Origin: a virus
Length of the DNA: 64,000 bases
IMG/VR virus record: IMGVR_UViG_3300034105_002260
Reading direction: 5' to 3' (one strand)
Both the position numbers and the translations under genes were made by a program. Shown piece after piece: positions 42,010-63,654 of the stretch. The number at the start of each line of letters is the position of its first letter. The stretch's first letter is position 1. The notes beneath the pieces were generated by a model, which saw only the letters and a list, made by a program, of their open reading frames with translations, had not been told where the DNA came from and did no database searches.

Positions 42010-42022
42010 TAAAATAATAATA

Positions 42023-42340: not shown

Positions 42341-42343
42341 ATT

Positions 42344-43837: not shown

Positions 43838-43851
43838 AAACAACATAAATT

Positions 43852-44496: not shown

Positions 44497-44520
44497 AACA
44501 AAAGATAATATTTATAACAT

Positions 44521-45801: not shown

Positions 45802-45830
45802 TAATAATAATAAAATAGTATTTATATCAT

Positions 45831-48053
45831 ATGAGCTTTTTAAACAGTAGCAATTCAGAATATCTTTCAGCAAGAATAACCCAAAAGGGTAGAAATTCTA
45901 TTGCTAAAGGTGAATTTATAATCAATTATTTTCAAATAGGAGATTCTGAATTTGACTATAACTTAGCGTTCTCAGGGTTAACTGGACAAACAAATCATCA
46001 AATGGTTTTATCTCCCGTTGATAAAGAATGTGGTGTGAAATATCCATATAAATTAGATACGGCAACAAATGTAACATACGGTATACCAATTGAAAATTCA
46101 ACAACTGAAGTTTTAAGAAATGTAATGGGTCCTGCAGGATTTGTTTCAGAATATAACCCATATGATTCTGTTGAGTGTACGGGATCAACAATTGAATGTA
46201 TAACAGTAAGTATTAATATTACTAATATAAATGGTGACAATGTTATAACCGTACCTTCAGGACAAGCATTTCAAAATTCTGAATATATTACGTTAGTCTT
46301 TGGTGTATTTAATGGATTGGATGCAAATCATCCAGTTATTAGTGGACACACAAATAGTTTAATTTATAAAATTGTAAGTATAAGTGGTAACACATTAACA
46401 TTAGATAGAAAAACACCCGATTTATCAACATTAACTGGTAATGTTCAAATAGTTGGTAATAAATGTGAAATTGAATTTCCTATTAGTTCAGAAATATCCC
46501 CAGTATGTTTACCAACACCTTTAGACCCAATGGACCAACATAATCCTTGGACACTTAATGTTGTTTGGGATGAAAAACCAATTGGAGCGGATGTACAAGG
46601 TACTGGTGTAGATGAAAACTTAAGTGGTTACACAAGTAATATTTATTTATCATCCAAAGAATTCTTTGGATATAACTCAACAGGTCAAACATTTCAAAAT
46701 TTAACAGGTGGAACTATCACAGGATTCAGTTCAAAAAATGTTAGTACAGGATTTAAAAATTCATTCGGTGAATTAATTGAAGTAACTCCACAAGAACAAA
46801 GATGTATTGCAATTATTCATTACTCTGAAATTGGTGATCTTCAAAATGACCCAGAAAGATTCTTTAAGTATGATGATTATATAAGTCACAAAACAGGAAC
46901 AACAGGTGACGATATTTCATTGGTTGATGATAGAGATGGTGAACCAATAAGTGATACTGAATATTTTGAGATTTTTATTCCGTTTATAAGTTACCACAGA
47001 AACCCAACAAACTCAGATACAAACGGTGCGGTGTTCACTATGGACACAGTTAACTATTATGTCAGACCTGTAACAGGAATTACCGAATCAAGATTTGAAT
47101 TATTATTTAGATATCTTTTAGATGAGTCAGGTAATAGAGTTGGTAAAGTATTCCCAACTAAAAAGGTTGTTATTTTTGATGACCAAGAATTGGTGGCTAT
47201 TTTAGATTATAGAAGTAATAGAAGATACACATTAGGAGCACCTAAAGTTGGATTCACTCCAGCATCACTTAACGAAGCGTTAGTGTCAGGAACAACTGAA
47301 CAAACTTTTTGGGTAACTTATTTATTTGAAAATGGTACAACAAGTTTATTTAATGCATTACCTTGTAACTATTTCACTAAAGTTTCAGTTAATTTTGATT
47401 TAGATACTTGTAACATTTCAAATCCATCAAATTTTACATTAAGATTTACAGGAGACACTTTCCAACATATGAATTATAGTGCAACACCAACAAATGTTGA
47501 CATATTCAGAACAGGTTTTATGGCAAAGAAATTCAAAGTATTAATCCAAGAAACAACAGGACTTCCAAACAAATACCCAACAATGGGAGGATGGTTAGCA
47601 ATTGATTGTACAACAAGAGTAGGTGGTAACGGTACGGCATATATTAACCCAACAGGAATGACATCTAATACGGTTGTTATTACAAAGAGTGATGTTAATA
47701 GTGCAACACCGTTTGACTTAGAATCACATTTATCTGGATTTGGTACTAACTATATTGGAGACGCAACGACTAATGATTGGGGAGTTACCACACCACAATT
47801 TGGTGATGAACAACCATTTCCAGGAAGTATTAGATTAGTAAGAGCAACCGACATTGAAGAGATGAATTTCTTAGTAAATTTACCTTGTAATCAATTTGAC
47901 CGAACTCAAAATCCAACATACGTTAGTGGTAGTAAGTTTATAACCGAAGTGGCTTTATTAAATTCAAATAAAGAACCATTGGTAGTTGCAAAAACTTCTA
48001 TTCCAATAAAAAGATTAGGAACCCAAGTATTCGCAGTTAAGTTAGATTTTTAA
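45831..48053 (+). CDS. Tail-collar / fibre-attachment protein (DUF3751 / P2 gpH N-domain-like termini)
   Basis: N-terminal ITQKGR...YFQIGDSE and C-terminal ITEVALLN...LVVAK...PIKR...VKLDF. Confidence 0.55.
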   Translation: MSFLNSSNSEYLSARITQKGRNSIAKGEFIINYFQIGDSEFDYNLAFSGLTGQTNHQMVLSPVDKECGVKYPYKLDTATNVTYGIPIENSTTEVLRNVMGPAGFVSEYNPYDSVECTGSTIECITVSINITNINGDNVITVPSGQAFQNSEYITLVFGVFNGLDANHPVISGHTNSLIYKIVSISGNTLTLDRKTPDLSTLTGNVQIVGNKCEIEFPISSEISPVCLPTPLDPMDQHNPWTLNVVWDEKPIGADVQGTGVDENLSGYTSNIYLSSKEFFGYNSTGQTFQNLTGGTITGFSSKNVSTGFKNSFGELIEVTPQEQRCIAIIHYSEIGDLQNDPERFFKYDDYISHKTGTTGDDISLVDDRDGEPISDTEYFEIFIPFISYHRNPTNSDTNGAVFTMDTVNYYVRPVTGITESRFELLFRYLLDESGNRVGKVFPTKKVVIFDDQELVAILDYRSNRRYTLGAPKVGFTPASLNEALVSGTTEQTFWVTYLFENGTTSLFNALPCNYFTKVSVNFDLDTCNISNPSNFTLRFTGDTFQHMNYSATPTNVDIFRTGFMAKKFKVLIQETTGLPNKYPTMGGWLAIDCTTRVGGNGTAYINPTGMTSNTVVITKSDVNSATPFDLESHLSGFGTNYIGDATTNDWGVTTPQFGDEQPFPGSIRLVRATDIEEMNFLVNLPCNQFDRTQNPTYVSGSKFITEVALLNSNKEPLVVAKTSIPIKRLGTQVFAVKLDF

Positions 48054-48091
48054 GCTTTACAATTCTCGATATTTTATTTATATATTATATT

Positions 48092-48703
48092 ATGAGTATA
48101 GATGTAAAATTTAAAAACAAACCAAAAATCCTTGGTTTAGATATTTCAACTAAAACCATCGGGTTTGCGTTGTTTGATATATCAGGTTCTAAATTATTGG
48201 AACTAACCCATTTTTCACCAAAGATTAAACCTCAACCTGAAGATAAGATTGAAGAACTTATTAAGAAGGCTGACGCGTTTAAGAAACATTTGGAAGAATA
48301 TAAGAATATGGGAATTACTCGTGTTATTATTGAGGAACCCCTTTTACAATCAAACAACATTTATACTGTAGGTACGTTATTAAGATATAATACACTTATT
48401 TTAAAAAATTGTTACGATGTTTTAGGTGTGTTACCGACATTTATTTCAACATACAATTCAAGAAAATTTGCATTCCCTGATTTAGTGGGGGCTAATGATA
48501 AAGGACGTAATGTTTTATTCGGAGGGTATCCAAAAGATATTGATAAGAAACACGTTATTTGGGAACACGTTAATGCGGTATGTCCTGACGTTAATTGGTT
48601 ATACGGTAAAACTGGAGCACTTAAAAAAGAAAATTATGATATGGCAGATGCGGCTGCTTGTGTTATTGGTTATATTAATATGTTGAAGGTCGAAAAAAAT
48701 TAA
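48092..48703 (+). CDS. RuvC-like Holliday junction resolvase
   Basis: ILGLDIST, VIIEEP, DMADA catalytic motifs. Confidence 0.8.
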   Translation: MSIDVKFKNKPKILGLDISTKTIGFALFDISGSKLLELTHFSPKIKPQPEDKIEELIKKADAFKKHLEEYKNMGITRVIIEEPLLQSNNIYTVGTLLRYNTLILKNCYDVLGVLPTFISTYNSRKFAFPDLVGANDKGRNVLFGGYPKDIDKKHVIWEHVNAVCPDVNWLYGKTGALKKENYDMADAAACVIGYINMLKVEKN

Positions 48704-48746
48704 TCAACTATATTTCACTTTAAAAGAAAAATAGTTTATATTTATT

Positions 48747-48822
48747 AAACAGGACGGGACGGGTAGAAATACTCGTTTTAGTTGGTTTCCCCTGGGAGTG
48801 GTGTACCAGGGGATTTTTTTTT
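48747..48822 (+). ncRNA. Candidate small structured RNA ending in an intrinsic terminator
   Basis: GC-rich island after TATTTAT (48739-48745): gacgggta-gaaa-tactcgtt hairpin, then tcccctgg-N10-ccagggga and a long T run. Confidence 0.4.
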
Positions 48823-48853
48823 GTCAAAAATTTTATGTATATTTCTACTAACT

Positions 48854-49795
48854 ATGGTAGAACACGAAATAGATTACTCGGCAGTTGTGGATATTCTCGA
48901 AGATATTTTGGGGGAACATAGACTGCATAACGACTATAGAGGACAGATATCCTTTGATTGTCCTGTGTGTTCTCACGATATTAAAGGATTGGACGACGGG
49001 GATGGTAAAGGTAATTTAGAGGTTAATTACAAAAGAGGTGTTTATAAATGTTGGGTATGTGCGGAAACCCACGACACTTATGGTTCTTTATATAAATTAT
49101 TAAAGAAATATGGTAATGCTAAACAACTAAAGAAGTATTTGTTGTTAAAACCAGAAGATGATGGGGAACAACCAAAAAGAACTTTTATACAGGTTAGATT
49201 ACCAAAAGAATTCGTATCATTCAAAGATGCTAGTTTAGGTCTTAAAATGACTCCACAATACAAACAAGCGTTTAACTACATACAAAAAAGAAATATAACA
49301 GATTTAATGGTTCAAATGTATAACATAGGGTTTTGTTATACAGGTCATTATGAACATAGAATTATTATTCCATCTTACGATTCGGAAAACAGATTAAATT
49401 ATTTCATTGCTAGGTCTTATTTGAATAATACCAAGATGAAATATAAAAATCCCGAAGTGGATAAAGAAAGTTTAATTTGGAATGAACATCTTATAAATTG
49501 GAATGACCCCGTTTATATTGTTGAAGGTGCATTTGATTCTATATTCTTACCAAATTCAATACCAATGTTGGGTAAGTTTATGACTCAAAATTTATTCGAT
49601 AAACTTTATGACAACGCAAAGAAAGTTGTAATTGTTTTAGACCCAGACGCTTGGGAGGATGCATTCAGATTATATCATAAATTAAATTGTGGTAAGTTAA
49701 TGGGTAAGTTATGGATTGTAAAATTAGATGGTGACAAAGATATTGCGGATTTAAAGGGAGATTTAAGTGGGTATGAAATAAAACAATTAGATTAA
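48854..49795 (+). CDS. DNA primase (Zn finger + TOPRIM)
   Basis: CPVC...CWVC, RIIIP, KYKNP, IVEGAFD, LDPDA, KDIAD; start at ATG 48854. Confidence 0.85.
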   Translation: MVEHEIDYSAVVDILEDILGEHRLHNDYRGQISFDCPVCSHDIKGLDDGDGKGNLEVNYKRGVYKCWVCAETHDTYGSLYKLLKKYGNAKQLKKYLLLKPEDDGEQPKRTFIQVRLPKEFVSFKDASLGLKMTPQYKQAFNYIQKRNITDLMVQMYNIGFCYTGHYEHRIIIPSYDSENRLNYFIARSYLNNTKMKYKNPEVDKESLIWNEHLINWNDPVYIVEGAFDSIFLPNSIPMLGKFMTQNLFDKLYDNAKKVVIVLDPDAWEDAFRLYHKLNCGKLMGKLWIVKLDGDKDIADLKGDLSGYEIKQLD

Positions 49796-49806
49796 ATATA
49801 AACACA

Positions 49807-50322
49807 ATGATAGTAGAGAAACATTACAGAGTACAGTTGTTAGATGGTAAAGAAACCACAACACTTTACGAGACGAGACAAGAAGCGGTTAGAGCACATA
49901 GAGGTAATATCTCTAAATTAATTGAGGTTCTACCTAAACACACTAAACCAAAAGTAGTTGCTCCAACAAACGACCAACTTGCAATTGTTATTAGTGCACG
50001 TAGTAACGAAGATTTGGACATTTCGAAAGATTGTGGTTATGCGGTTATGTATAATTGTCCAAAAATGGATAACATATATGATGGTATGAAATATCTTGAA
50101 GTGTCGGGTGATTATGTGTTGGAAGCAACAATTACTAAATTAGAGAAGTATGAAAAAAGTATTCACCATCATTGGAAAGGTCCAGGGTATAAACCAGATA
50201 AAGTTTGGAAGTGGGCTATATTTCATAAAAATGGTAAGATAGTACCAAGAAAAGCGGCTGAAGAAAGATATAGTAATCCACTTAAAGGAACTCAAGGTGG
50301 TATTAGTTATATAAAAATTTAA
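49807..50322 (+). CDS. Hypothetical protein
   Basis: 171-aa ORF with A-rich leader. Confidence 0.6.
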   Translation: MIVEKHYRVQLLDGKETTTLYETRQEAVRAHRGNISKLIEVLPKHTKPKVVAPTNDQLAIVISARSNEDLDISKDCGYAVMYNCPKMDNIYDGMKYLEVSGDYVLEATITKLEKYEKSIHHHWKGPGYKPDKVWKWAIFHKNGKIVPRKAAEERYSNPLKGTQGGISYIKI

Positions 50323-50328
50323 AAGATT

Positions 50329-51210
50329 ATGAATTTACAAGAAATTGCAACAGAAATAAATGAACTACTTGAAAATAGACGAAAGGAATTAGATTTAACT
50401 TTCGTTGAAGAGGAACACATTTATTATATGAGAGATACCGAAGGGGTGTTAAGAAAAACATTCCCATCAGTTTCTAAATTAATAAAAAAATTCCACAAGG
50501 CATTTGATGCGGATGGTATGTCACTTAAAATGTGTAAGGGTGATCCTGAAGCCGCAGCACTTTTGAGAGAAGAATGGAAACAATCTGGAACCTATGCAAC
50601 CAATATGGGTAGTAGAGTTCACTTTGTATTAGAGAGTGACACCATTAGTCGTTTTGGTGATTACAAGGAAGTTAGACAACCTATATTCGAATGTGATGAT
50701 GCTCAGTTATTAAGAAGTGATAGTATGATTAAAGCGGGAAAAGAATTTCTTGACTTAATGATTGAAAGAGGGGCAATACTTTTAGATACTGAAATCATAT
50801 TAGGTGATAACGAATTAGGTTACACAGGACAACCAGACAAAGTTTGGTTAATGTTTAACAAAGACAAAACAGATTTCGGAATTGTAATTACAGATTGGAA
50901 AACAAACCAACCAAAAAACTTTGAAATCCAACATTACACAGGTAAAATGTATGCACCGTTTAATGAATATCACGACACGGCGCTTGGCCATTATTATTTA
51001 CAACTACCGTTATATGCTAGGTTATTACTTAAAATGTTAAAAGGAACTAAGTATGAAAACTTAAAATTATTAGGATGTGTTGTGATTTTATTGAAAGACG
51101 ATGGGACATACCAAGAATATAAAGTACCTTCACAAGTAAACAACACAGTATTAAATTTAGACTTAACAAAATATATTGATTATGGTAAAAAAGGTTATAC
51201 ATATCGCTGA
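50329..51210 (+). CDS. PD-(D/E)XK exonuclease (RecB / Cas4-like fold)
   Basis: PSVS, GSRVH, GQPD, TDWKT, YLQLPLYA. Confidence 0.8.
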   Translation: MNLQEIATEINELLENRRKELDLTFVEEEHIYYMRDTEGVLRKTFPSVSKLIKKFHKAFDADGMSLKMCKGDPEAAALLREEWKQSGTYATNMGSRVHFVLESDTISRFGDYKEVRQPIFECDDAQLLRSDSMIKAGKEFLDLMIERGAILLDTEIILGDNELGYTGQPDKVWLMFNKDKTDFGIVITDWKTNQPKNFEIQHYTGKMYAPFNEYHDTALGHYYLQLPLYARLLLKMLKGTKYENLKLLGCVVILLKDDGTYQEYKVPSQVNNTVLNLDLTKYIDYGKKGYTYR

Positions 51211-52000
51211 TCTTCACATCAGAACAATTCAAATGCACGACTTATATAAAGAACAATTTGAAAAGTTAATTAATGAGATTAATGAATTACAAATTGAATG
51301 GAATAAAGAGGGAATTACATCTGATAATATTAGGATAGTTGTTGCTGGGGATATTGCTCACCAAAAGATAAACATATCTAACGAACAATTAATGTTAACA
51401 AGTTGGTTTCTAAAAGAACTATCTTACTTAGGTAATGTTGTAATAATACCAGGTAATCACGATTTCTTAGAGAACAATACACAAAGATTAGACAGTATTA
51501 GTCCTGTCGTTGATTTATTAGATAATAAAAATATCCAATACTATAAAGATAGTGGTGGCTATATTGATGAAAACATTCAATGGGTTGTTTATTCTTTATA
51601 TCAACATAACGCTCGACCAGAGTTTACCAAAGATAAAACTAAATTAACTATTGGTTTATTTCACGGACCTATTATGGGTTTATCCACCGATATGGGATTC
51701 GAATTTGAAGATGCTTATGATCAATTAAACTTTGTTGGTTTGGATTTACTATTGTGTGGTGACATTCATAAGAGACAAACGTTCACATTACCTGAAGGAG
51801 GTAAAGCAGTTATGATTGGTTCATTAATACAACAAAACTTTGGTGAATCAGTTAAACATCACGGATATGGTATTTATGATGTTGAAACGGATAACTATAC
51901 ATTCAAGGATATGGATAACGTACAACCGTTTCTACACTTTAAAATAAACGACATAAATGACATTGAAAATGAAAAAGAAGAGCTCGTTAACCTTGGATAA
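51182..52000 (+). CDS. sbcD: SbcD / Mre11 / gp47-like nuclease
   Basis: ADLH, AGDIAH, PGNHD, FHG, GDIH metallophosphoesterase motifs. Confidence 0.85.
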   Translation: MVKKVIHIADLHIRTIQMHDLYKEQFEKLINEINELQIEWNKEGITSDNIRIVVAGDIAHQKINISNEQLMLTSWFLKELSYLGNVVIIPGNHDFLENNTQRLDSISPVVDLLDNKNIQYYKDSGGYIDENIQWVVYSLYQHNARPEFTKDKTKLTIGLFHGPIMGLSTDMGFEFEDAYDQLNFVGLDLLLCGDIHKRQTFTLPEGGKAVMIGSLIQQNFGESVKHHGYGIYDVETDNYTFKDMDNVQPFLHFKINDINDIENEKEELVNLG

Positions 52001-52493
52001 TGAATTCCTTCTTTATTGTGAAATAAATGGAATTGAAAATATTGACAAACTTGCAAAGGAAACCTTCGAGAGAGGGTTTTCTTTATTAAAATATGGTGAA
52101 ACCCCAACAGGTAATAGTACCGTAAAAGAAAAGATAGTAGAAGTAATCAAGGAAGTTATTATTGAAAAACAATTACCATCTGAAATAAAATACGTTGATA
52201 GGGAAGTTATTAAAGAGGTGCCTGTTGAAAGAATTGTAGAAGTGATAAAAGAAGTTCCGGTTGAAATTAAGGGAGACACCCAAGTGATAACGAAAGAAAT
52301 AATTAAGGAAGTGCCCGTTGATAGGATTGTGGAAAAGATTGTGGAAATTACAAACAACGAGGAAATAGAAAGACTCACCAAAAAGAATTCAGAATTGGAA
52401 ACTGAGTTAGGAAACATCAAAATATCATTAGAGAAATTTAACAAAGCTACCTATATGAAAAATAGTGACCTGGGTAGTTTATATAGTGAATAA
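51969..52493 (+). CDS. Hypothetical protein with IKEVPV(E/D) repeats and C-terminal coiled coil
   Basis: Repeats visible in translation. Confidence 0.6.
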   Translation: MKKKSSLTLDNEFLLYCEINGIENIDKLAKETFERGFSLLKYGETPTGNSTVKEKIVEVIKEVIIEKQLPSEIKYVDREVIKEVPVERIVEVIKEVPVEIKGDTQVITKEIIKEVPVDRIVEKIVEITNNEEIERLTKKNSELETELGNIKISLEKFNKATYMKNSDLGSLYSE

Positions 52494-52541
52494 TTTCTTT
52501 TTCTCAAAAATTTAGTTTATTATTTAATAAAAACAAATACT

Positions 52542-52853
52542 ATGGTTTTATTAACATTATGGGCCTTTATTGCCTACGGATTTACATCAATAATTGTTTG
52601 GGGTGCCATTTTTGAAAAAACTCGAATATTCATTAAGAAACATTCAAATTTTTTTGGTGATTTAATTTCTTGTACATTATGTACGTCAACTTGGGTTGGA
52701 TTTTTTATGTCAATATGTCTTGGAGGTTTATCTTCAAGAATTTTAGACACACATTGGTTACCAAGTATTTTCTTTGACGGTATGTTCACCGCTGGAATCG
52801 TCTGGTCAATAAATGCAATCATAGAATTTTTTGAAGAAAGCAGAATAAAATAG
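52542..52853 (+). CDS. Small membrane protein, DUF1360-like
   Basis: Hydrophobic segments and GDLISCTLCTSTW (CxxC..W). Confidence 0.65.
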   Translation: MVLLTLWAFIAYGFTSIIVWGAIFEKTRIFIKKHSNFFGDLISCTLCTSTWVGFFMSICLGGLSSRILDTHWLPSIFFDGMFTAGIVWSINAIIEFFEESRIK

Positions 52854-53836
52854 TGAAATCTTTAAGGATAGGTAATAATACCTTTTATTATTTAACAACA
52901 AAGGAAATTCTTTATAGAGTAACTAAGGAATACTACTTAGACAATGTTAAGTTGTTTGATTCAGTACGTTCAAAGAATGATGAAGATAAGGAAAAATCAA
53001 TCTATGTTGATATAATAAAAGGTTATAAACAATCCTTCTTTAAGATGTCATCTGAAACAATGGATAACTGGAAAGTTATTATAGATGAACTTAAAGAAAA
53101 ATATAAAGAAGGGGAGTTTGAGCAGGTTGTCAGTCACATAAATAAGGATTCAACGGGTGAATACCACCAAGTCCTTATGAAACATATTGAGAAGGTAAAC
53201 AAGATAAATCCTACAACAATTTTGGGTAGATTATTAAGTTATTCACCAATTGATGAATTAGGATATTCACAACCAACTTTTTTTAATACCTTTGACATAG
53301 TAAAAGACGCTAAACTAATTCCTAATAATGGGGTTCAATGGGATAGACAAGTAAGGAATTACTTCTATGTTGAATATTATAAGGAAAAAGGTTCAACCAT
53401 AGGTTATAGATTTATTGGTTTTAATTTACAAGACGTAACTAAAAACAGACAAATTAGACCAGACATTAGGAGAGCATTTGAAGATGTTCCCTGTGTACAT
53501 TGTTGGACACCAAATAAGTCTCATAAGAAACACGAGATAGACCATAAGAATGGAAGATACGATGATGACCAAGTACTTGAATATAGTAGTCAAGAGGTCG
53601 ACCATTTTCAAGCTTTATGTCGCGAACACAACCTTCTAAAAAGAAGTGCGTGTAAAAAATGTAAAGCAAATGATATTAGATTCGACGCAACGTTTTTAGG
53701 GTACACCACGTCAGTCACCGAAGGTACGTTAAAATATGAAGAACAGTTAGGTTGTAAAGGTTGTTATCTATACGACCCATTAGATTTTAGATCACAATTC
53801 ATTTTAAAAACAAAAGAGAATAATGAAATACAATAA
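52853..53836 (+). CDS. IceA1 / NlaIII-family HNH restriction endonuclease with N-terminal extension
   Basis: NGVQW...RFIGFN...RQIRPDIR, CVHC, EIDHKNGR, FQALCREHN..KR..CKKCK...RFDA, GCKGCYLYDP match remembered NlaIII/IceA1 motifs in order; GTG start. Confidence 0.8.
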   Translation: MKSLRIGNNTFYYLTTKEILYRVTKEYYLDNVKLFDSVRSKNDEDKEKSIYVDIIKGYKQSFFKMSSETMDNWKVIIDELKEKYKEGEFEQVVSHINKDSTGEYHQVLMKHIEKVNKINPTTILGRLLSYSPIDELGYSQPTFFNTFDIVKDAKLIPNNGVQWDRQVRNYFYVEYYKEKGSTIGYRFIGFNLQDVTKNRQIRPDIRRAFEDVPCVHCWTPNKSHKKHEIDHKNGRYDDDQVLEYSSQEVDHFQALCREHNLLKRSACKKCKANDIRFDATFLGYTTSVTEGTLKYEEQLGCKGCYLYDPLDFRSQFILKTKENNEIQ

Positions 53837-56165
53837 TCCATTTATTAAAGTTACTTGGGAAGATACACCAGAAAACTTTACTCCTGAAAAAATCAGAAGA
53901 GTAAAATCTTATTTTCAAGACAAATACAAAGGAAAGAATATCCAGGTCATTACCAAGAGTTTGGTTAACACTTCCAACGTACAATTACAATCGTTGGAGG
54001 CATCTGATAGTATATTAGATAACCAATATCAAAAAGGTTTGATGAAAGATTTTATTAAGGAAAATGGAATCACAACTAAATGGGAATTGGTTGATAGGTT
54101 AGATAATAGAGTTAACGGAGAAATCGATAAGTTAAATCAAAATAAAGTTCGTTACAATAAATGGTATATCAAGAAGATTGAGTTTTCTAATTTTCTTTCT
54201 TTTGGTGAAGATAACGTAATTGATTATACCTCATTAGATGGTATTACAGTTATTGAATCCACACCAAAGAACTTCGGAGGTAAATCTACTTCTTCAGTTG
54301 ATTTATTGATGTTCTTATTTTTTAATTCAACAACCAAAACTAAAACAGCAATTGAAATATTCAATAAGTTTAGTGATAAAGATGAGTTGAGTGTTAGAGG
54401 TGAAATTACTATTGATGGTGATGATTATGTTATTGAAAGGAAACTATCAAGAAAGAAAACCAAAGTAGGTGAATACAACGTAACCAATAAACTTGAGTTT
54501 TATAAGAAGAAGGAAGATGGTACCGTTGAGAACTTAACTGGTGAACAAAGAAGAGAGACTGAAGCATTTATTGAATCGGCTATTGGTAGTGAAGAAGATT
54601 TCTTGGCAACCATTATGACCACAGGTAACAACTTAGAACAGTTAATTGAATCCAAACCAACGGCACGTGGACAAATCCTAACTAAGTTTATGGGATTGGA
54701 GAGTTTAAAAGTAAAGGAAGACATAGCGAGAGGAATATATAATGATTGGAGCAGAAAGTTGGTATCTAATACATACAACATTACTCAATTGGAGATTGAT
54801 AATACCAATTATCAAGACAGTATCACCAATTCTGAAAATGAAAACGAAAGATTAAATGGTGAACTAACTAGATTAGATAAACACCTAAAAGAATTGGAAG
54901 GTAGACGTGATACTGTGTTAGGTTCTCGTAATAACGATATAGATAGAGAACTAATTAATACCAACCCAACTTTACTTGAAAGAGAAATAAATGATTTAAC
55001 GAAACAAAAAAATAGTAGTCAGGTAAATGCGGACGGTGTAAGTGTTGTTGAACCTTCAAAGTATTATGAAGAAGATCAACACAAAGAGTTAAGAGGTGAG
55101 ATGGCAAATCTTCAAGGAATTGATGTTGCTTACAAATACGAAAAGACTCAAAGAGAAAAACTAATTAAACAATTTGAAGAAGGAACAGTTTGCCCAACTT
55201 GTAATCGTGCATTAGATGAAGTTGATCACACCGATGAGATTGAAAAGATTAAAAAAGAAATTGAGGACATCATTAAAGAGATAGAATTAAATCAGATTCA
55301 ATTTGATTTATTAAAACAACAATCCGAACAATTTGATGCACTAAGAACCGAATTTGATACTTACGAGAGAAACAAACTTCGTAAATCTCGATATGAGTTG
55401 GAGGTAGAACAAAAACAACTAGAGATTAGTAATAAACAATTAAGGTTAGATAGATACGACGATAATAAAAAGAAATTAGAGGAGAATCAAAAAATAGATG
55501 CTGAGGTTATTGCGTTAAGAACTAAGATTGATACTGCCAATGCTGATATTAGAGTTACAAACATCACTATTGAACGACATAAATCAAATATTGAAACAAT
55601 GAAAGAAAAAATTGGAGTCAATAATGATTTGATTGTTAAGATTAAAGGTGAGGAAGAACTTGGGAATACATTCAAAACTTACTTAACCATTTATGGTAAG
55701 AATGGTATTTCAAAATTGATTATGAAAAATATGATTCCGCTATTAAACCAGGAGTTGTATCGTTTATTAGTTGATAGTTGTCATTTCATTTTAGAATTAA
55801 ATGTAAACGACAAGAATGAAGTTGAGTTCTTAATGATTGATACCGAAACAAGAGTGGTAAAACCATTGAACTCAGGATCTGGTTATGAAAAGACAATCTC
55901 ATCATTAGCATTGAGATCAGTATTAACAAAGATTTCATCATTACCTAAACCAAACATCGTGGTTATGGATGAGGTGTTTGGTAAAGTGGCGGATGAGAAC
56001 CTAGAGATGGTTGGTGAGTTCTTTAAGAAGATTAAAGATTACTTTGAACATATTATAGTAATTTCCCATAACCCTTTAATCCGTAATTGGTCGGACAATA
56101 TCATTATGATTAAGAAAGAGGAAAATATCTCTTCTATTGATTATATCACAACAAAAATTTCGTAA
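53823..56165 (+). CDS. sbcC: SbcC / Rad50 / gp46-like ATPase
   Basis: NFLSFG, Walker A NFGGKST, coiled coil with CPTC hook, SGSGYEK, VVMDE, ISH. Confidence 0.9.
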   Translation: MKYNNPFIKVTWEDTPENFTPEKIRRVKSYFQDKYKGKNIQVITKSLVNTSNVQLQSLEASDSILDNQYQKGLMKDFIKENGITTKWELVDRLDNRVNGEIDKLNQNKVRYNKWYIKKIEFSNFLSFGEDNVIDYTSLDGITVIESTPKNFGGKSTSSVDLLMFLFFNSTTKTKTAIEIFNKFSDKDELSVRGEITIDGDDYVIERKLSRKKTKVGEYNVTNKLEFYKKKEDGTVENLTGEQRRETEAFIESAIGSEEDFLATIMTTGNNLEQLIESKPTARGQILTKFMGLESLKVKEDIARGIYNDWSRKLVSNTYNITQLEIDNTNYQDSITNSENENERLNGELTRLDKHLKELEGRRDTVLGSRNNDIDRELINTNPTLLEREINDLTKQKNSSQVNADGVSVVEPSKYYEEDQHKELRGEMANLQGIDVAYKYEKTQREKLIKQFEEGTVCPTCNRALDEVDHTDEIEKIKKEIEDIIKEIELNQIQFDLLKQQSEQFDALRTEFDTYERNKLRKSRYELEVEQKQLEISNKQLRLDRYDDNKKKLEENQKIDAEVIALRTKIDTANADIRVTNITIERHKSNIETMKEKIGVNNDLIVKIKGEEELGNTFKTYLTIYGKNGISKLIMKNMIPLLNQELYRLLVDSCHFILELNVNDKNEVEFLMIDTETRVVKPLNSGSGYEKTISSLALRSVLTKISSLPKPNIVVMDEVFGKVADENLEMVGEFFKKIKDYFEHIIVISHNPLIRNWSDNIIMIKKEENISSIDYITTKIS

Positions 56166-56181
56166 TTTAAAATAAAACAAT

Positions 56182-56189
56182 TACATTTG
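56182..56189 (+). promoter_or_regulatory. Bacteroidota-type -7 promoter element (TAnnTTTG)
   Basis: TAcaTTTG about 20 nt before the clpP ATG. Confidence 0.45.
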
Positions 56190-56210
56190 TACACAATAAA
56201 AACTTACAAT

Positions 56211-56885
56211 ATGACACCAAACGATTACAAAGGTTTCGGTTTATTTGCCAAGGACCAAGGAGTTAGTTCAATGAACTTACACAACTACAATAAGAGAGTA
56301 GAAAATAGTTTAACCCCATATATCTTGGAGGAAAGACAAATGAACGTTACCGCAATGGATGTATTTTCACGTTTGATGATGGAACGTATCATTTGGGTTG
56401 CTGGTGAGGTTAATGACCATATGTCAACCATTGTACAAGCTCAGTTGATGTTCTTGGATAGTATTGACAGAAATGACATTACAATGCACATTGACAGTCC
56501 AGGTGGTTCAGTTAAGTCTGGATTATCTATGGTGGACGTTATGGAATATATTGGTTCCGATATACGTACCATTAACACGGGTATGGCGGCCTCTATGGGT
56601 TCAGTCCTACTTGGAGCAGGGACGAAGGGTAAACGTGGTTCCTTGAGGTTCTCACGTACTATGTTACACCAATCATCGGGAGGGGCAGGTGGAAATATCC
56701 AAGATGCTCGTATCACTATGATAGAATGGGAGAAAATCAACGACACATTGTTCGAATTGTTGGGTGGATATTGTGGTAAAGACGCTGAAATCGTTAAAAA
56801 CGATGCAAGTCGAGATCTATGGTTGGGAGCACAAGAGGCTCTCGATTACGGAATTATCGATGAAATAGTTAAGAAAAAAAGTTAA
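56211..56885 (+). CDS. clpP: ATP-dependent Clp protease proteolytic subunit
   Basis: DVFSRLMMERII, IDSPGGSV, GMAASMG (Ser), MLHQ (His), RDLWL (Asp). Confidence 0.92.
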   Translation: MTPNDYKGFGLFAKDQGVSSMNLHNYNKRVENSLTPYILEERQMNVTAMDVFSRLMMERIIWVAGEVNDHMSTIVQAQLMFLDSIDRNDITMHIDSPGGSVKSGLSMVDVMEYIGSDIRTINTGMAASMGSVLLGAGTKGKRGSLRFSRTMLHQSSGGAGGNIQDARITMIEWEKINDTLFELLGGYCGKDAEIVKNDASRDLWLGAQEALDYGIIDEIVKKKS

Positions 56886-56890
56886 TATGA

Positions 56891-56920
56891 AAGGGGACGA
56901 AAGTCCCCTTCTTCATTTCT
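56891..56920 (+). terminator. Hairpin / terminator after clpP
   Basis: aaggggac-gaaa-gtcccctt followed by pyrimidine-rich tract. Confidence 0.65.
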
Positions 56921-56945
56921 TCATATTTATAATAAAACACATAAT

Positions 56946-57281
56946 ATGAAGATTAATAAAACAAATATCTTATTAGTTTTGATTGCTTGTTTAGCCGCTT
57001 ATACCATTTTTCAAAATCAAGGTATAAAGACTGACGTTGCGGGATATAACGCTAAAATTGAATCCTTACAAAAGGATATAGATTCAGTTTACACAGCAAA
57101 CAAAGAGATAGACAATCAAATTGAAAAAGTTGATAATCACATTGTTAATGTTGATAAAGATATCGACAACGTGACAAAAAACATAACTATTATTAAAAAC
57201 AACACAGATGAAAAAGTTAATTCTATTACCACTATTGGTAATGTTGAGCTTGAGCAGTTATTCGCAAACAGATACAACTAA
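56946..57281 (+). CDS. N-terminal membrane anchor + coiled coil (spanin-like candidate)
   Basis: Hydrophobic N-terminus, heptad repeats, overlaps next gene. Confidence 0.5.
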   Translation: MKINKTNILLVLIACLAAYTIFQNQGIKTDVAGYNAKIESLQKDIDSVYTANKEIDNQIEKVDNHIVNVDKDIDNVTKNITIIKNNTDEKVNSITTIGNVELEQLFANRYN

Positions 57282-57633
57282 AGTTATAGTATTGGATACT
57301 ACTAAAGTTATTTTACCAACAAAAGTTGCTAGATTGGTTTTTCAAGATTTACTTCGTTATGACGGAGCTAAATTGGAAATTGTCGAATTAAACAAAGTCA
57401 TATCCTTGAAAGATAATCAAATTGGGTTATTCAAACAAAAAGACACCCTTAAGGACCAAAAGATTGGTAACTTAGAATTAATTATATCTAAGAAGGATCA
57501 ACAATTTGATTTAGAAAGACAAAAATCTGAAAGTTTATTAAAAGAACTTAAAACACAAAGAACAAAAACGTTCTTTTATAAAATTGGTTCTTTTGTTGGA
57601 ATAATTGCAACGTCCATACTTTTATTAAAATAA
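57208..57633 (+). CDS. Signal peptide + coiled coil + C-terminal TM protein (lysis accessory candidate)
   Basis: MKKLILLPLLVMLSLSSYSQ; C-terminal hydrophobic helix. Confidence 0.5.
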   Translation: MKKLILLPLLVMLSLSSYSQTDTTKVIVLDTTKVILPTKVARLVFQDLLRYDGAKLEIVELNKVISLKDNQIGLFKQKDTLKDQKIGNLELIISKKDQQFDLERQKSESLLKELKTQRTKTFFYKIGSFVGIIATSILLLK

Positions 57634-57634
57634 A

Positions 57635-58276
57635 ATGAAGAAATACATTAACACCAAGAACATTATAATTGTTATATTAATAATTCTTTTGTTTTTGGTA
57701 TTTCTTAATCCAGGTGGATATGTTCCAATGAGAACAAAGTTTGTTCCAAAAATTGATTCGGTACCTTATGCGGTTCACGATACATTATTTGTTGATTCTT
57801 TAGTTGAAGTTGAGGTTGAAGTACCTGTTCCATATGAGGTTGAAAAAAGAGTTGAGGTTCAAGTTATCCAACCAGTGGACACTATGGAAATATTAAAAGT
57901 ATTTTACACTAAGAATGTTCAAAAAAATGTGTTAAATTTACCTAACGGTGTTGGGACAATTACTTTGACCGATACTATTGTTGAGAATAAAATAGTTGGA
58001 ACATCATTTGATTCTAAAATTAAAAAACAAATCGTAAGGGATACACTTCGTTTACCTGAAGAAAAGAAAAATAAAATTTATTTTGGTGTCACCGCCCAAG
58101 TTGACGGACCAAACCTTATTAATGGTTTAGGTATGGGGTTACTATATCAAACTAAACAAGATAAAATATTTAAAGTGGGTGTCGGTGTGAACAATTGGGT
58201 AAAGGACGGCACGAATGGTACATTTACCCCATATGTTGATGCGGGAATCTATTGGAAGATTAAAGTAAGACGATAA
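57635..58276 (+). CDS. Membrane-anchored protein with C-terminal amphipathic beta strands
   Basis: N-terminal TM, VEVEV stretch, ends YVDAGIYWKI. Confidence 0.5.
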   Translation: MKKYINTKNIIIVILIILLFLVFLNPGGYVPMRTKFVPKIDSVPYAVHDTLFVDSLVEVEVEVPVPYEVEKRVEVQVIQPVDTMEILKVFYTKNVQKNVLNLPNGVGTITLTDTIVENKIVGTSFDSKIKKQIVRDTLRLPEEKKNKIYFGVTAQVDGPNLINGLGMGLLYQTKQDKIFKVGVGVNNWVKDGTNGTFTPYVDAGIYWKIKVRR

Positions 58277-58280
58277 TACT

Positions 58281-58724
58281 ATGAAGACATTCATACTTTT
58301 CATCTTTGGGACGTTTGAAGATCACGAAGATATAGCATTTTTTTGTACTGAGATTTTAGGTAACTCAACCGCCATTAAATCTTTAAAGTATGTTATTGAA
58401 AGTTCACAAAATATAATTGTTATATTTGATTCAGAATTAGAACATAAAGATTTATCACAAGAGCTCTACGGAGTATTGATTTCCGACGTTGTTAAGTTTT
58501 ATTTTCTATTTGAAAGATCATCATTAGTGTGTGCTCACTTACCAGAACAAGTGAAGGATTTTATATTTAAACCACTACCAGAATCATCGGCAATTGAAAT
58601 CAACTACATAAAAAATATCCCCGAACAGATGGACTTAGATGAGGTCCTTGAAAAAATAGAAAAGACGGGAATTGGCAGTTTAACGGACGAAGAAAAAAAC
58701 TTCTTAGATAATTTTGAGAATTGA
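58281..58724 (+). CDS. Hypothetical protein with DUF6576-like C-terminal helix pair
   Basis: LDEVLEKIEKTGIGSLTDEEKNFL. Confidence 0.5.
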   Translation: MKTFILFIFGTFEDHEDIAFFCTEILGNSTAIKSLKYVIESSQNIIVIFDSELEHKDLSQELYGVLISDVVKFYFLFERSSLVCAHLPEQVKDFIFKPLPESSAIEINYIKNIPEQMDLDEVLEKIEKTGIGSLTDEEKNFLDNFEN

Positions 58725-58780
58725 TTTTTTTTTATTATCTTTATCCAATATAAACAATAAAACTGCTTTCGCCAACAACT

Positions 58781-59596
58781 ATGAAGAAATCCATCATCAT
58801 CAACACCGAGGAAATCCAGCAGTACATAAAGGATATCCGTAAAATTCCAGTAATTTCACACGAAAGACAGGAACAAATTTTCAAACTTTTAATTTCCAAA
58901 GAAACACCCAAGAAAGAGAAAACAGATTTACTCAACGAGTTAGTTGTTGGTAACTTAAGATTTGTTATTTCTGTTGCAAAAATGTACCAGAGTCAAGGTA
59001 TGGACATTATGGATTTAATTTCAGAAGGAAACATTGGATTAATAAAAGCAGCGGAAAGATTTGACCCAACAAGTGGTTTAAAATTTATTTCATATGCGGT
59101 ATGGTGGGTGAAACAATCTATAATGGCATCTCTTAACGAGAATTCTAGAACAATTAGAATCCCATCCAACTTAGTTCAGGAAGCTCAGAAACAAAGAAAG
59201 AGAGAAGAGGTTGGGATTGAAGATCAATTTCATTTAGATAAAGATAACGAACCAATTGTAGGACAAAACTTACCCTACTGTATTGGTTTATATAATGAAA
59301 TTAATGAAGATGGGGACACACTTATTGATTTAATTCCAAATAAGAATGCGGATGACCCTGAAGAATTTTTAAATTCACCGGAGGAGATTAAGAAGAAAGT
59401 TGCCCTAATGTTAAATGTTTTAGATGAAAGAGAAAAAATCATTATTACGAAATATTATGGATTAACTGGGGTTGAATCTAATTTGGATGATTTAGGTGAA
59501 GAATTTGGGTGCACCAAAGAACGTATTAGACAATTACGTGATAAGGCCATTAAAAAGTTACGTAATGAGAGTTTTGGTCTATTAAACTATTTATAA
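58781..59596 (+). CDS. Sigma-70 family RNA polymerase sigma factor (RpoD/RpoH-like, no region 1.1)
   Basis: NLRFVISVAK, DLISEGNIGLIKAAERFD, KFISYAVWW, region 4 TKERIRQ. Confidence 0.92.
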   Translation: MKKSIIINTEEIQQYIKDIRKIPVISHERQEQIFKLLISKETPKKEKTDLLNELVVGNLRFVISVAKMYQSQGMDIMDLISEGNIGLIKAAERFDPTSGLKFISYAVWWVKQSIMASLNENSRTIRIPSNLVQEAQKQRKREEVGIEDQFHLDKDNEPIVGQNLPYCIGLYNEINEDGDTLIDLIPNKNADDPEEFLNSPEEIKKKVALMLNVLDEREKIIITKYYGLTGVESNLDDLGEEFGCTKERIRQLRDKAIKKLRNESFGLLNYL

Positions 59597-59624
59597 AAAC
59601 AAAAATTATAACTATTATTATAAT

Positions 59625-59918
59625 ATGAAAAAGCTAATAGAATTAATAAAAACATATAAACTTCAGATATTGATTTTTCTAACAATCATTTTCTTTTTTC
59701 GCTCTTGTAGTAATTCAAGTAAAGTGGGTAAGTTAGAAAAAATTGAGAAACAAAACGTTGCTACGATTGACAGTCTTAAAATTGCAAATAAAAACGAAAA
59801 AATAAAGATTCACAGTTTTTATGATAATTGGATAACACAAAAGGATAGAGGACCACAATTAATGGAACTTCATTTTATTGTTAAGGAAAACCTAAAAAAA
59901 GAACAAGAATCTAAATGA
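59625..59918 (+). CDS. Small membrane-anchored (possibly lipo-) protein
   Basis: Hydrophobic stretch followed by RSC. Confidence 0.5.
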   Translation: MKKLIELIKTYKLQILIFLTIIFFFRSCSNSSKVGKLEKIEKQNVATIDSLKIANKNEKIKIHSFYDNWITQKDRGPQLMELHFIVKENLKKEQESK

Positions 59919-61144: not shown

Positions 61145-61413
61145 AAAACCCATTGGATTTGGTGGAAAACCCCCTCTTAAACACAAGAGGTGGTCAATTA
61201 TCACCTTTGGATCTCCAGGAGTTACCGAATAATAATGATGACCTGTATTGGGAAAACGATGAAATTGTAATCCCAACTCAGGTCATTTCTGATTTGAGTA
61301 TTGAAGAAGAAAACTCAAGTCCAATAGACGAAGGTTCACAAACAACAACCACACCGTCTAAAAAAGTTATATCAAGGAATGTTAGTAATTCACAACGTAG
61401 ACGTTTTAGATAA
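61129..61413 (+). CDS. Acidic ORF in the -1 frame, probable frameshift extension of the upstream gene
   Basis: Frame opens at the A10 run (61128-61137) right after an in-frame TGA; no ATG; similar composition. Confidence 0.4.
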   Translation, partial: KKKSIENPLDLVENPLLNTRGGQLSPLDLQELPNNNDDLYWENDEIVIPTQVISDLSIEEENSSPIDEGSQTTTTPSKKVISRNVSNSQRRRFR

Positions 61414-62501: not shown

Positions 62502-62506
62502 CTAAG

Positions 62507-63653: not shown

Positions 63654-63654
63654 T

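Follow-up and report, generated by a model that had tools for sequence, protein, structure and literature searches.

The window analysed here, a stretch of 64,000 nucleotides that corresponds to about one fifth of the genome of a T4-like freshwater jumbo phage (~330 kb), encodes a nuclease of the NlaIII/IceA1 (ICEA) family without an adjacent methyltransferase and is entirely devoid of the sequence CATG. The explanation that best accounts for these observations is that the gene specifies an active CATG-specific endonuclease whose methylase has been lost, and that the phage is immune to it through its CATG-free genome. This reading is considered likely, with a probability of about 0.72; cleavage, specificity and expression are inferred. 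The original prediction, made from the letters alone, had proposed such a methylase-less CATG cutter with self-protection by site removal, a proposal that was supported in every comparative test run. Its suggestion that the enzyme is used against host or competing-phage DNA is an inference only and has not been shown.

The nuclease and its genomic slot

The orphan ICEA gene (52853..53836, + strand) begins with a GTG start codon and encodes a His-Me/HNH endonuclease of 327 aa. Its product matches the Pfam ICEA profile (PF05315) above the curated threshold (E=1.7e-26; 93.6 bits against a cut-off of 24) along residues 159-320, which correspond to positions 37-205 of the 218 in the profile model. 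Assignment to this family had first been made from a string of motifs, with a family HMM search proposed as a check; the assignment held, since that search gave the strong match just described and the whole string is present in the translation (NGVQW, RFIGFN, IRPDIR, CVHC, EIDHKNGR, FQALCREHN, KR..CKKCK, RFDA and GCKGCYLYDP). In an alignment of 33 homologues, the window protein keeps all 23 family-invariant residues, including DHK-GR, N260 and five cysteines. ICEA has been classified as family 27 of the His-Me finger nucleases (PMC5714182), and the known specificity of the NlaIII/IceA1 enzymes is CATG, which the footprint in the window fits. The protein is therefore likely to be a CATG-specific nuclease of this family, an attribution for which no biochemical data exist, so that CATG cleavage and specificity, like expression, are inferred.

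Full-length homologues with 60-91% identity reside on phage contigs, and the bacterial and short phage homologues are proteins of 190-250 aa paired with N6 or C5 methylases. On a contig from an NCLDV (L110), an ICEA homologue adjoins a capsid gene. INPHARED phage records yielded neither a DNA match to the 8 kb around the gene nor a protein match, and a scan of IMG/VR with the single nuclease protein found zero relatives, which a later profile scan did recover. A PDB sequence search with the nuclease returned nothing relevant, and there is no solved ICEA-family structure to compare. NCBIfam holds no family matching ICEA or the proteins termed X191, A178 and B103 below, PHROGs gave just a weak match of unknown function to the nuclease, and no public RNA run containing the window sequence was found.

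At the structural level, the protein can be divided into three parts. Residues 1-86 (52853..53110, + strand) form, according to the model and profile searches, a lineage-specific N-terminal domain of unknown function, which folds confidently when modelled alone (pLDDT 82, pTM 0.74) and is under purifying selection. Its profile recovered 15 clusters among 1.84 billion proteins, all of them long-form ICEA proteins or fragments. The top fold match of this domain, the SeqA C-domain (Z 4.1), is too weak to build on; Foldseek found no match in the PDB at E<=0.001, and a shape search of the Atlas stayed below a TM of 0.5 throughout. The N-terminal extension had been estimated at ~140 aa and described as unexplained; its size is corrected here to ~105 aa in total (the ~86-aa domain plus a linker), and it is still unexplained. 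The middle domain (residues ~101-192; 53153..53428, + strand), with which the conserved ICEA core starts, is winged-helix-like in the model. Its matches to winged helices of the ArsR/SmtB type (Z ~4.3) cannot bear weight either; N159, G160 and W163 are nearly invariant in it, and R165 and G189 are invariant. The third part (residues ~196-314; 53438..53794, + strand) is the HNH/His-Me core, which is catalytic and zinc-binding and contains residues invariant in the 33 homologues, namely C214, D230-H231-K232, G234-R235, N260, K263-R264, C267, C270, C301, C304, Y305 and D308. The window protein shares those on which a His-Me/HNH and zinc assignment rests (D230-H231-K232, N260, C214, C267, C270, C301 and C304) and thus satisfies that criterion. 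As regards the beta-beta-alpha-metal fold of the family, the nearest structural matches of the core are HNH domains, from Cap5 (Z 5.7) and from McrA (Z 5.3), both weak and below the tool's reliable level. The model of the whole protein reaches a pLDDT of 79, and Foldseek found no match to it in the PDB at E<=0.001.

The gene had been placed between sbcD and sbcC, and this held, with two small conserved genes intervening after sbcD. The upstream border of the variable slot is the sbcD gene (51176..52000, + strand), which encodes a T4 gp47-like nuclease subunit (Pfam Metallophos) conserved in all relatives. It is followed by A178 (51957..52493, + strand), a conserved, repeat-rich acidic protein of 178 aa that occupies the same position in nearly all relatives and has no significant family match in Pfam or NCBIfam, and by B103 (52542..52853, + strand), a conserved 103-aa membrane protein resembling DUF1360 (Pfam E=1.3e-4) that is kept in relatives. 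The downstream border is sbcC (53823..56165, + strand), a 780-aa ORF for a Rad50/T4 gp46-like ATPase whose translation contains a Walker A-like GGKST, a zinc-hook-like CPTC motif and a C-terminal MDEVFG motif. Its assignment rests on motifs and position because the orthologues, found in 71 IMG/VR loci with 54-93% identity, have no recorded Pfam family. The stop codon of B103 overlaps the ICEA start (TAGTG), and sbcC starts within the last 14 nt of ICEA. From these overlaps it is concluded that ICEA is translationally coupled with both neighbours, expression from the sbcD-sbcC operon being inferred. Across relatives, the B103-sbcC slot contains ICEA alone, ICEA with a methyltransferase, a different gene (X191) or other cassettes, some of them R-M-like, or it is empty. 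A PD-(D/E)XK exonuclease had also been reported nearby, for which the support is minimal (a weak Pfam hint to DUF3799, E=0.035), and the proposal that breaks made by the enzyme could feed degradation and nucleotide recycling relies on a link to SbcCD inferred from position only.

Absence of CATG and of an adjacent methyltransferase

CATG does not occur on either strand anywhere in the window (1..64000), as originally noted. Its expected number is 230 +/- 15 in 100 dinucleotide-preserving shuffles and 165 under a second-order Markov model; extrapolated to a genome of ~330 kb, roughly a thousand sites would be expected. It is the sole 4-mer that is fully absent, GCGC, CCGG and GATC being depleted only in part, and every flanking context of CATG is missing, as for a plain 4-bp site. 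The avoidance operates in all three codon phases. Before a codon starting with G, histidine is encoded 51 times by CAC and never by CAT, compared with 59 CAC and 128 CAT elsewhere in the window; synonymous codons ending in a pyrimidine end before methionine in T (134) and never in C; and NCA is used before TGN in 0 of 70 cases, as opposed to 53% elsewhere. CATG avoidance is thus wholly synonymous.

No cognate methyltransferase adjoins the nuclease gene, whose neighbours are sbcC and the 103-aa membrane protein. A Pfam scan of 50 window ORFs gave matches to 29 families, and there is no methylase among 25 of these; a tblastn search of the window with the partner methylase of relatives gave no match either. 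SprB repeats were also matched in the window, a hint that the host may belong to the Bacteroidota. The statement that no methyltransferase is recognisable in the window consequently held. Base-modification genes were likewise not seen in the window. An adjacent methylase does accompany ICEA in relatives (L006/L007 and L073). In five orphan-bearing or CATG-free contigs, PF01555 had no match and PF00145 matched in just one. A cognate methyltransferase elsewhere in the genome had been named as a result that would refute the prediction, and in this regard relatives do have a D12/Dam-like methylase gene, which follows sbcC at a distance of ~13 kb; a counterpart of unknown specificity probably sits just outside the window in this phage. 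This enzyme is unlikely to be the CATG partner because it is a syntenic core gene (78-84% identical) present equally in CATG-rich and CATG-free relatives, and because ICEA carriers that keep CATG have a separate adjacent methylase. The records, it must be remarked, are partial.

CATG and gene content across relatives

The comparison set comprised ~70 loci of the same family of ~330-kb T4-like freshwater jumbo phages, in which CATG is mildly under-represented (O/E ~0.6). None of the records that are CATG-free or orphan-bearing covers a whole genome, their completeness being 17-48%. Every carrier of ICEA without a methylase has zero CATG, on contigs of up to 160 kb: 0 of 222 expected in 81.6 kb (G004), 0 of 213 in 81.7 kb (G005), 0 of 512 in 159.8 kb (G006), and 0 of 53 and 0 of 51 in L001 and L004. 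The same applies to a different T4-like phage (L107; 0 of 33 expected), which has a short-form ICEA without the N-terminal domain at a different insertion site. In four clades, orphan status goes together with zero CATG, and CATG alone is wholly missing from all orphan carriers. Where ICEA is accompanied by a neighbouring N6 or C5 methylase, CATG is retained (O/E 0.03-1.0), and some of these carriers accommodate both genes in the same sbcD-sbcC slot. Equal absence of CATG from relatives without the gene would have argued against the original prediction, and this was found not to be so: 59 of 62 distinct ICEA-less loci show O/E values of 0.39-0.94, the exceptions being a lineage with a value of 0 and another that became ICEA-less only recently (two loci; 0.16-0.17). 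Depletion is therefore bimodal, either zero or ~0.6, with intermediates only in lineages with ICEA and a methyltransferase and in the lineage that lost ICEA.

Two sets of loci require separate mention. L039/L064 are CATG-free (0 of 141 expected in 55 kb), with X191 instead of ICEA in the slot; no PF05315 match was found in these 55 kb, and the 214-kb contig of L064 is absent from the ICEA motif matches. Zero CATG can therefore exist without a visible ICEA gene. The possibility that X191, the replacement in L039, is a second CATG nuclease was examined and is unlikely, as it is common in CATG-rich relatives and the PD-(D/E)XK leads are weak. In the small high-GC phages L126-L128, represented by short contigs, an ICEA-like gene adjoins terminase and CATG is present at normal levels. 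The ORF upstream, truncated where the contig stops, has only a sub-threshold match to EcoRI methylase; these phages were left undetermined and excluded from the counter-examples.

Ongoing selection against CATG is also indicated by the pattern of substitutions. When real substitutions between orphan lineages were reshuffled in 500 simulations, 26 +/- 5, 26 +/- 5 and 62 +/- 8 new CATG sites were expected under neutrality and 0 were observed, a value reached in 0/500 simulations. The same test gave 27 sites against 27 neutral in an ICEA-less relative, and 17 against 26, a mild depletion, in a carrier of ICEA and methyltransferase. L009/L010, which branch within the orphan clade and whose slot contains X191 instead of ICEA, have regained CATG (O/E 0.16-0.36; 12 versus 39 neutral), and their aligned sites are all single-base variants of the window sequence, none of them shared. 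This sister lineage is regaining CATG after the loss of ICEA. In two orphan clades the nuclease itself is strongly constrained, its dN/dS being 0.06-0.13 (dS at least ~1) in the N-terminal domain and core alike; the value for the window gene against L001 and L004 is 0.08 (dS ~1.5). In the ICEA tree, orphan and R+M forms are interleaved: L073/L096 (R+M, with just 2 CATG in 22 kb) are sister to the orphan L098-100, and L104/L106 (R+M) to the orphan L107. The methylase has thus likely been lost at least three times, and the truly independent events are few (~3-4) because orphan lineages are related and exchange DNA. Contigs from four lake metagenomes could not be used as a population test of CATG creation, with only 40 of ~1,650 variant positions visible and related phages mixed in.

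Regarding other sites, GATC is wholly absent in ten loci (L038, L052-56, L065, L098-100) and graded in the rest (0.07-1.05). Neither DpnII (PF04556) nor MutH/Sau3AI (PF02976) was matched in five GATC-free or GATC-poor partial records, L038 and L052-56 not included. Absence of GATC without a detectable nuclease means that host-driven purging to zero is possible in this family, and host pressure may have begun the CATG purge as well.

Proposed origin, rival explanations and known systems

In the proposed scenario, the ancestor would have been an ordinary R+M cassette in the hotspot between sbcD/gp47 and sbcC/gp46. Imperfect self-protection or host restriction, or the two together, would initially have depleted CATG, and the methylase, then dispensable, would have been deleted at least three times. 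The phage would be immune to its own enzyme because its genome has no CATG, and the enzyme would keep the genome CATG-free because any new CATG amounts to a self-inflicted double-strand break. Expressed from the sbcD-sbcC recombination-nuclease operon, it may shred CATG-bearing DNA in the infected cell, be it host chromosome, plasmids or co-infecting phages, and the fragments may then be processed by the SbcCD-type exonuclease.

The rival that survives best, unlikely as it is, holds that host restriction (or armed competitor phages) wholly causes CATG avoidance, ICEA being a tolerated passenger or selfish insert that contributes little to the CATG-free state and whose establishment without a methylase was possible only in a genome from which CATG had already gone. 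In its favour are the CATG-free L039/L064 without a visible ICEA gene, the zero or graded GATC without an identified phage nuclease, which is the usual host-driven picture, and the mild family-wide under-representation of CATG. However, CATG depletion is bimodal and GATC depletion is not; the lineage that lost ICEA regains CATG, while orphan-bearing sisters of similar divergence have none; ICEA is under strong purifying selection; and the rule that the orphan occurs only in CATG-free genomes still needs a CATG-active enzyme. According to a second rival, very unlikely, the protein acts as a free-standing homing endonuclease of the HNH type whose long target lies in slots that lack ICEA, or has another role such as nicking or packaging, the absence of CATG being unrelated. 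The slot does satisfy the homing-endonuclease criterion of presence/absence polymorphism between conserved genes, as in T4-like phages, the extra N-terminal domain could lengthen recognition, and some small phages have ICEA-like genes beside terminase in CATG-rich genomes. Against this, zero CATG accompanies orphan status in four clades, including the short-form L107 at its different insertion site, the slot of relatives contains classical R-M cassettes in which this protein is accompanied by a methylase, and the genome-wide loss of all CATG contexts points to a short 4-bp site. Finally, it is very improbable that the enzyme is dead or unexpressed, a decaying R-M remnant, or that the DNA is protected by base modification or by a methylase encoded far away. 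Solitary bacterial restriction genes are often fragments, silent or inactive (PMC3488263), and relatives do have a D12 methylase gene close by. Against this, the ICEA gene is of full length, translationally coupled within the operon and intact at its invariant residues (dN/dS ~0.08 over dS ~1.5), a protecting methylase would be pointless because the genome has no CATG, and D12 also belongs to the core genes of relatives rich in CATG.

Building on the preferred reading of an active orphan CATG nuclease, a bolder one can be formulated, to which, taken jointly with its parts, we give clearly less than even credence. Orphan 4-bp cutters would represent an arms race of 'immunity by absence' among co-infecting jumbo phages, in which the armed phage shreds the host chromosome and CATG-bearing rivals, and in which the nuclease gene and CATG-free sequence alike spread by way of recombinational repair, a genome-wide marker exclusion comparable to gene drive. 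The unarmed, CATG-free L039/L064 would be immune free-riders, the sbcD-sbcC slot would be a locus dedicated to weapons, with R-M cassettes replacing one another there and losing their methylase time and again, and GATC loss in some lineages may mark a second, unidentified nuclease of like kind.

The window protein belongs to the same family (PF05315) as R.NlaIII of Neisseria lactamica and IceA1/HpyAI of Helicobacter pylori, with which it shares all catalytic and zinc invariants. It differs from them in lacking an adjacent methyltransferase, in being encoded by a jumbo phage and in its extra ~86-aa N-terminal domain, exclusive to these phage proteins. Restriction enzymes are normally tolerated only with a protecting methylase, PacI being the one textbook exception: this solitary HNH restriction endonuclease of Pseudomonas alcaligenes has no methylase, and its host genome lacks the sites (as cited in PMC3488263). 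The likeness lies in an HNH restriction enzyme, here without an adjacent cognate methylase, that would be tolerated through missing sites in its own genome; sites are missing throughout the 64-kb window and the 81.6-, 81.7- and 159.8-kb contigs of orphan-bearing relatives. The PacI site is 8 bp long, AT-only and rare by composition in its host, whereas here a 4-bp site has been purged by pervasive synonymous selection, the carrier is viral and the state arose repeatedly from R+M cassettes.

Similarities with viral systems can also be drawn. R.CviAII/M.CviAII of the chlorovirus PBCV-1 likewise involves a virus-encoded short-site restriction endonuclease, and CviAII also targets CATG. Chlorovirus restriction endonucleases are believed to break down the DNA of the host soon after infection begins, and their genes are always adjacent to those of methylases, the viral DNA being methylated (PMC7019647); in the window, by contrast, there is neither a recognisable methylase nor a site. 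In T4, host DNA is broken down by EndoII (denA), EndoIV (denB) and the gp46/gp47 exonuclease, and hydroxymethylcytosine marks self. A nuclease sparing phage DNA could similarly feed the SbcCD-like gp46/47 exonuclease, the window gene being located between the gp47-like and gp46-like genes, but by analogy the inferred self mark would be an absent sequence and not a modified cytosine. T-even phages possess free-standing HNH homing endonucleases (Mob/Seg type), whose long recognition sites lie close to where the endonuclease gene is inserted. The window nuclease resembles them in its intergenic insertion, presence/absence polymorphism and likely spread by recombination in co-infection, and differs in belonging to a 4-bp restriction family, in the R+M cassettes of relatives and in its genome-wide footprint.

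No report of CATG-free phages or of methylase-less phage restriction enzymes was found in the literature searched. What is described here is an apparent frequent 4-bp cutter without methylase in a virus, with hundreds of codon junctions apparently rewritten across a ~330-kb genome, and it suggests a principle of self/non-self discrimination by which a phage could attack host or rival DNA without DNA modification. On the practical side, the family would enlarge the choice of CATG cutters with novel enzymes that have an additional domain, cleavage being inferred, and missing k-mers in viral metagenomes offer a route to orphan nucleases. The comparative series displays successive stages, from R+M with many sites to R+M with two, to R only with none, and to loss of R with sites returning; it is therefore testable how strongly a restriction enzyme shapes the genome that encodes it, and how an R-M system becomes a pure weapon.

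The ICEA gene and its product

At the gene level, the NlaIII/IceA1-family endonuclease (ICEA) is encoded at 52853-53836 on the plus strand, with a GTG start and a product of 327 aa. The protein matches Pfam PF05315 over residues 159-320 (E=1.7e-26, 93.6 bits, cut-off 24); NlaIII and IceA1, both restriction endonucleases, belong to this family, which is part of the His-Me finger superfamily (PMC5714182). The family membership and the motif string claimed in the original prediction thus held, all the listed motifs being present in the translation, as did the location of the gene between sbcD (gp47-like) and sbcC (gp46-like). In an alignment of 33 homologues the protein keeps 23/23 invariant positions, including the DHK-GR block with the catalytic histidine, N260, K263-R264, C214, C267, C270, C301 and C304. 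The GTG start and the stop codon of the preceding gene, for a 103-aa membrane protein, have one base in common; at the other end, the final 14 nt of ICEA overlap the sbcC start, an operonic arrangement. dN/dS is 0.06-0.13 at dS of about 0.84-1.6 (two clades of orphan ICEA, that is, without partner methylase; N-domain and core alike). Family membership, intact motifs, operon position and strong purifying selection are hence shown.

An AlphaFold model (pLDDT 79) divides the protein into three parts. Residues 1-86 form an N-terminal domain, which a disordered linker connects to a middle domain (about 101-192) that weakly resembles a winged helix (Z about 4.3); for the C-terminal part (196-314), the top structural matches are HNH domains with weak scores (Cap5, Z 5.7; McrA, Z 5.3). 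Folded alone, the N-domain gives a confident model (pLDDT 82, pTM 0.74), for which no convincing structural relative was found (SeqA C-domain, Z 4.1; no Foldseek match; Atlas TM < 0.5). Searched by profile against 1.84 billion proteins, it was recovered in only 15 clusters, all of the long-ICEA architecture or its fragments. The N-domain as a mark of orphan status was ruled out, since locus L073 combines it with a methylase and the orphan of locus L107 lacks it.

CATG absence and its maintenance

The claimed absence of CATG also held: it occurs on neither strand of the 64,000 bases, against 230 +/- 15 expected from dinucleotide-preserving shuffles and 165 from a second-order Markov model. It is the sole 4-mer wholly missing; GCGC (6 vs 29 expected), CCGG (14 vs 66) and GATC (83 vs 188) are depleted in part, deficits that suggest restriction pressure other than at CATG. 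Avoidance is complete and synonymous in each of the three codon phases. Histidine before a G-starting codon is written CAC 51 times and never CAT (elsewhere CAT 128, CAC 59), Y-ending synonymous codons before Met end in T 134 times and never in C (elsewhere 23% C), and NCA precedes TGN in 0/70 cases (elsewhere 53%). No such bias was found in CATG-rich relatives.

The maintenance of this state became apparent when the actual substitutions separating the window from each relative were moved to random positions with the same base and the new CATGs expected under neutrality were counted. For orphan carriers, 26 +/- 5 new sites were expected in L001 and in L004 and 62 +/- 8 in G004, an 81.6-kb contig; none was observed, and zero was reached in 0/500 simulations for each pair. 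L012, without ICEA, yielded 27 where 27 were expected, L006, with ICEA and methylase, 17 where 26 were expected, and G002, which lost ICEA, 12 where 39 were expected. Selection against CATG is therefore ongoing and acts on DNA. The loci L009/L010 (93% identical to the window) are nested in the orphan-ICEA clade of the SbcC tree and carry X191, the commonest alternative occupant of the ICEA slot, and replacement of ICEA by X191 is the simplest reading of that tree. Their contigs show CATG observed/expected ratios (O/E) of 0.25 and 0.36, falling to 0.16-0.17 close to the slot. Thirteen G002 CATGs can be aligned to the window; all but one differ from the window sequence at a single base, and the window has none of these sites.

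CATG content and methylase status across relatives

The original prediction would have been refuted by ICEA-less relatives equally free of CATG, which was not the case, as 59/62 distinct ICEA-less loci have O/E of 0.39-0.94. Orphan carriers contain no CATG: 0/165 (observed/expected) in the window, 0/53 in L001/L002, 0/51 in L004/L005, 0/222 in G004 (locus L025) and, in the L098-100 lineage, 0/213 in G005 (81.7 kb) and 0/512 in G006 (159.8 kb). The same is true of L107 (0/33), a different T4-like phage whose short ICEA is flanked by the prohead protease gene and a 519-aa gene. Where a methylase adjoins ICEA, O/E is 0.47-0.51 in L006/L007, 2 CATGs remain in 22 kb of L073, and some 30 other viral and bacterial loci range from 0.06 to 1.7. 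CATG depletion is thus bimodal and follows ICEA and methylase status across lineages, unlike the graded depletion of GATC. The confinement of methylase-less ICEA to CATG-free genomes implies an enzyme active on CATG, cleavage itself being inferred.

One misfit is the L039/L064 lineage (G001), CATG-free (0/141 in 55 kb; 0 vs 38 expected under neutral divergence) with X191 in the slot. No PF05315 match was found in the 55 kb, and the 214-kb L064 contig gave no hit in an ICEA motif scan. Very recent ICEA loss, an ICEA or other CATG nuclease in unsampled DNA, restriction by the host, or pressure exerted by armed relatives could each account for it, and this may be an unarmed yet immune phage. GATC offers a second misfit: it is wholly absent from ten loci (L098-L100, L038, L052-L056, L065), with 0/473 in G006, 0/244 in G005 and 0/64 in L065, while other relatives are graded (0.07-1.05). 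Searches of five records, all partial, found no DpnII-type or MutH/Sau3AI-type nuclease gene. Members of this family can thus purge a 4-mer to zero with no phage nuclease identified; GATC may be a second missing word of unidentified or host-driven cause, and the CATG purge may well have been started by host restriction.

A cognate methylase elsewhere in the genome would also have told against the original prediction. Despite the lack of GATC in some lineages, all relatives examined share, as a syntenic core gene, a D12 (Dam-like) adenine methylase of about 280 aa. It is located some 13 kb downstream from sbcC (e.g. L084:4364-5200, minus strand; L151-L153), and by synteny it probably lies about 4 kb past the window 3' end. 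CATG-free and CATG-rich phages have versions of it that are 78-84% identical, and those in which CATG persists with ICEA still need a separate methylase next to the nuclease gene; it is therefore an unlikely CATG partner, though its target motif is not established. Five CATG-free contigs contain no PF01555 methylase, and one of the five has PF00145, 85 kb from ICEA.

Partner methylases are of two chemistries, beta-class N6/N4 (PF01555; L006, L073, L103-L118) or C5-cytosine (PF00145; L101, L119, L141, L142, L145, L147), and among bacteria such pairs occur in genomes of Pelagibacteraceae and Opitutae, for example. Apparent CATG-bearing orphans were rejected: C5 methylases adjoin ICEA in L101 (on either flank), L119, L141 and L145, homologues of these are present in L142, L147 and L140, the partner in L125 is truncated, and L110 was set aside as a giant-virus contig. 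In the latter (73 kb, O/E 0.30), a 288-aa homologue adjoins an NCLDV-type major capsid protein gene and no adjacent methylase was seen. In small, high-GC, CATG-rich phage contigs (L124-L131, L137-L139), a 203-aa ICEA-like gene directly precedes the terminase and portal genes, and in many cases a 454-aa methylase-like gene follows 0.6 kb downstream. The ICEA-like gene might belong to an R-M cassette or encode an HNH protein associated with packaging.

Evolutionary path, proposed function and the slot

The jumbo-phage proteins group together in the ICEA tree, in one well-supported clade where orphans alternate with the methylase-paired L006 and L096 (= L073). L096 retains two CATGs and is sister to orphan L098-100, and in a separate clade the paired L104/L106 are sister to orphan L107. 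The L006 and L073 methylases are 76% identical, and therefore the ancestral cassette most likely comprised both genes, the methylase being lost at least three times. Many paired carriers are already strongly CATG-poor (O/E 0.03-0.3), which fits the known avoidance, by genomes, of the targets of R-M systems that they encode (PMC4687349). In the path that we propose, a paired cassette would insert, CATG would be progressively depleted to a near-zero state as in L073, and deletion of the methylase would then lock in the CATG-free state.

An orphan CATG cutter in a CATG-free phage is likely, well supported by comparative genomics and not yet by biochemistry. The enzyme is inferred to cleave CATG and to keep the genome free of it. 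By analogy it would attack host and rival DNA, with SbcCD (gp46-47) processing the fragments; this part of the original prediction remains inference only. T4 EndoII and EndoIV exemplify phage nuclease attack on host DNA. Chlorovirus virion restriction enzymes (PMC7019647) offer another analogy, although their methylase gene is always adjacent and none adjoins the window ICEA. Restriction genes without a partner have been described before, and most are accounted for as fragments, inactive genes or systems whose parts are separated, PacI being the only one for which site absence is cited (PMC3488263). What seems new is a phage-borne, inferred 4-bp cutter without methylase in a site-free genome, of which no account was found in the literature searched; solitary restriction genes and viral restriction enzymes are both known.

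The window encodes a T4-like core (gp32, gp25, baseplate J, RNR, DnaB, a RecA/UvsX-like protein, a sigma factor and ClpP) together with SprB and cadherin repeats. SbcC orthologues 54-93% identical occur in 71 IMG/VR loci on contigs of up to 335.6 kb, and CheckV completeness of 100% for that relative and 95% for one of 316 kb indicates jumbo phages of roughly 320-335 kb. At least 17 studies of lake-water metagenomes (2020-2024) contain near-identical DNA, not counting three likely source samples. Across relatives the slot between the 103-aa gene and sbcC is empty or holds X191, ICEA alone, ICEA with methylase, or other two-gene cassettes. Several of these pair an unknown ORF of 156-396 aa with an N6_N4, Eco57I-type or D12 methylase (L026 5662-7135; L061 7594-9998; L077 8403-10005; L031 8718-10011; L024 7412-10005; L028 8205-10005) and probably represent additional Type II R-M systems whose nucleases are unclassified, so that the gp47-like/gp46-like gap appears to be an R-M hotspot. 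X191 (170-230 aa; L039:9453-10031, L009:9456-10031 and many relatives) carries a GVDD...GVEVEHGKW motif, and a language model weakly suggests PD-(D/E)XK nuclease families. Another variable element here, a UDP-glucose/GDP-mannose dehydrogenase gene, separates the 103-aa gene from the sbcD-side genes in the L098-100 lineage (L098:8393-9634; also L099 and L100; a 409-aa ORF in L011).
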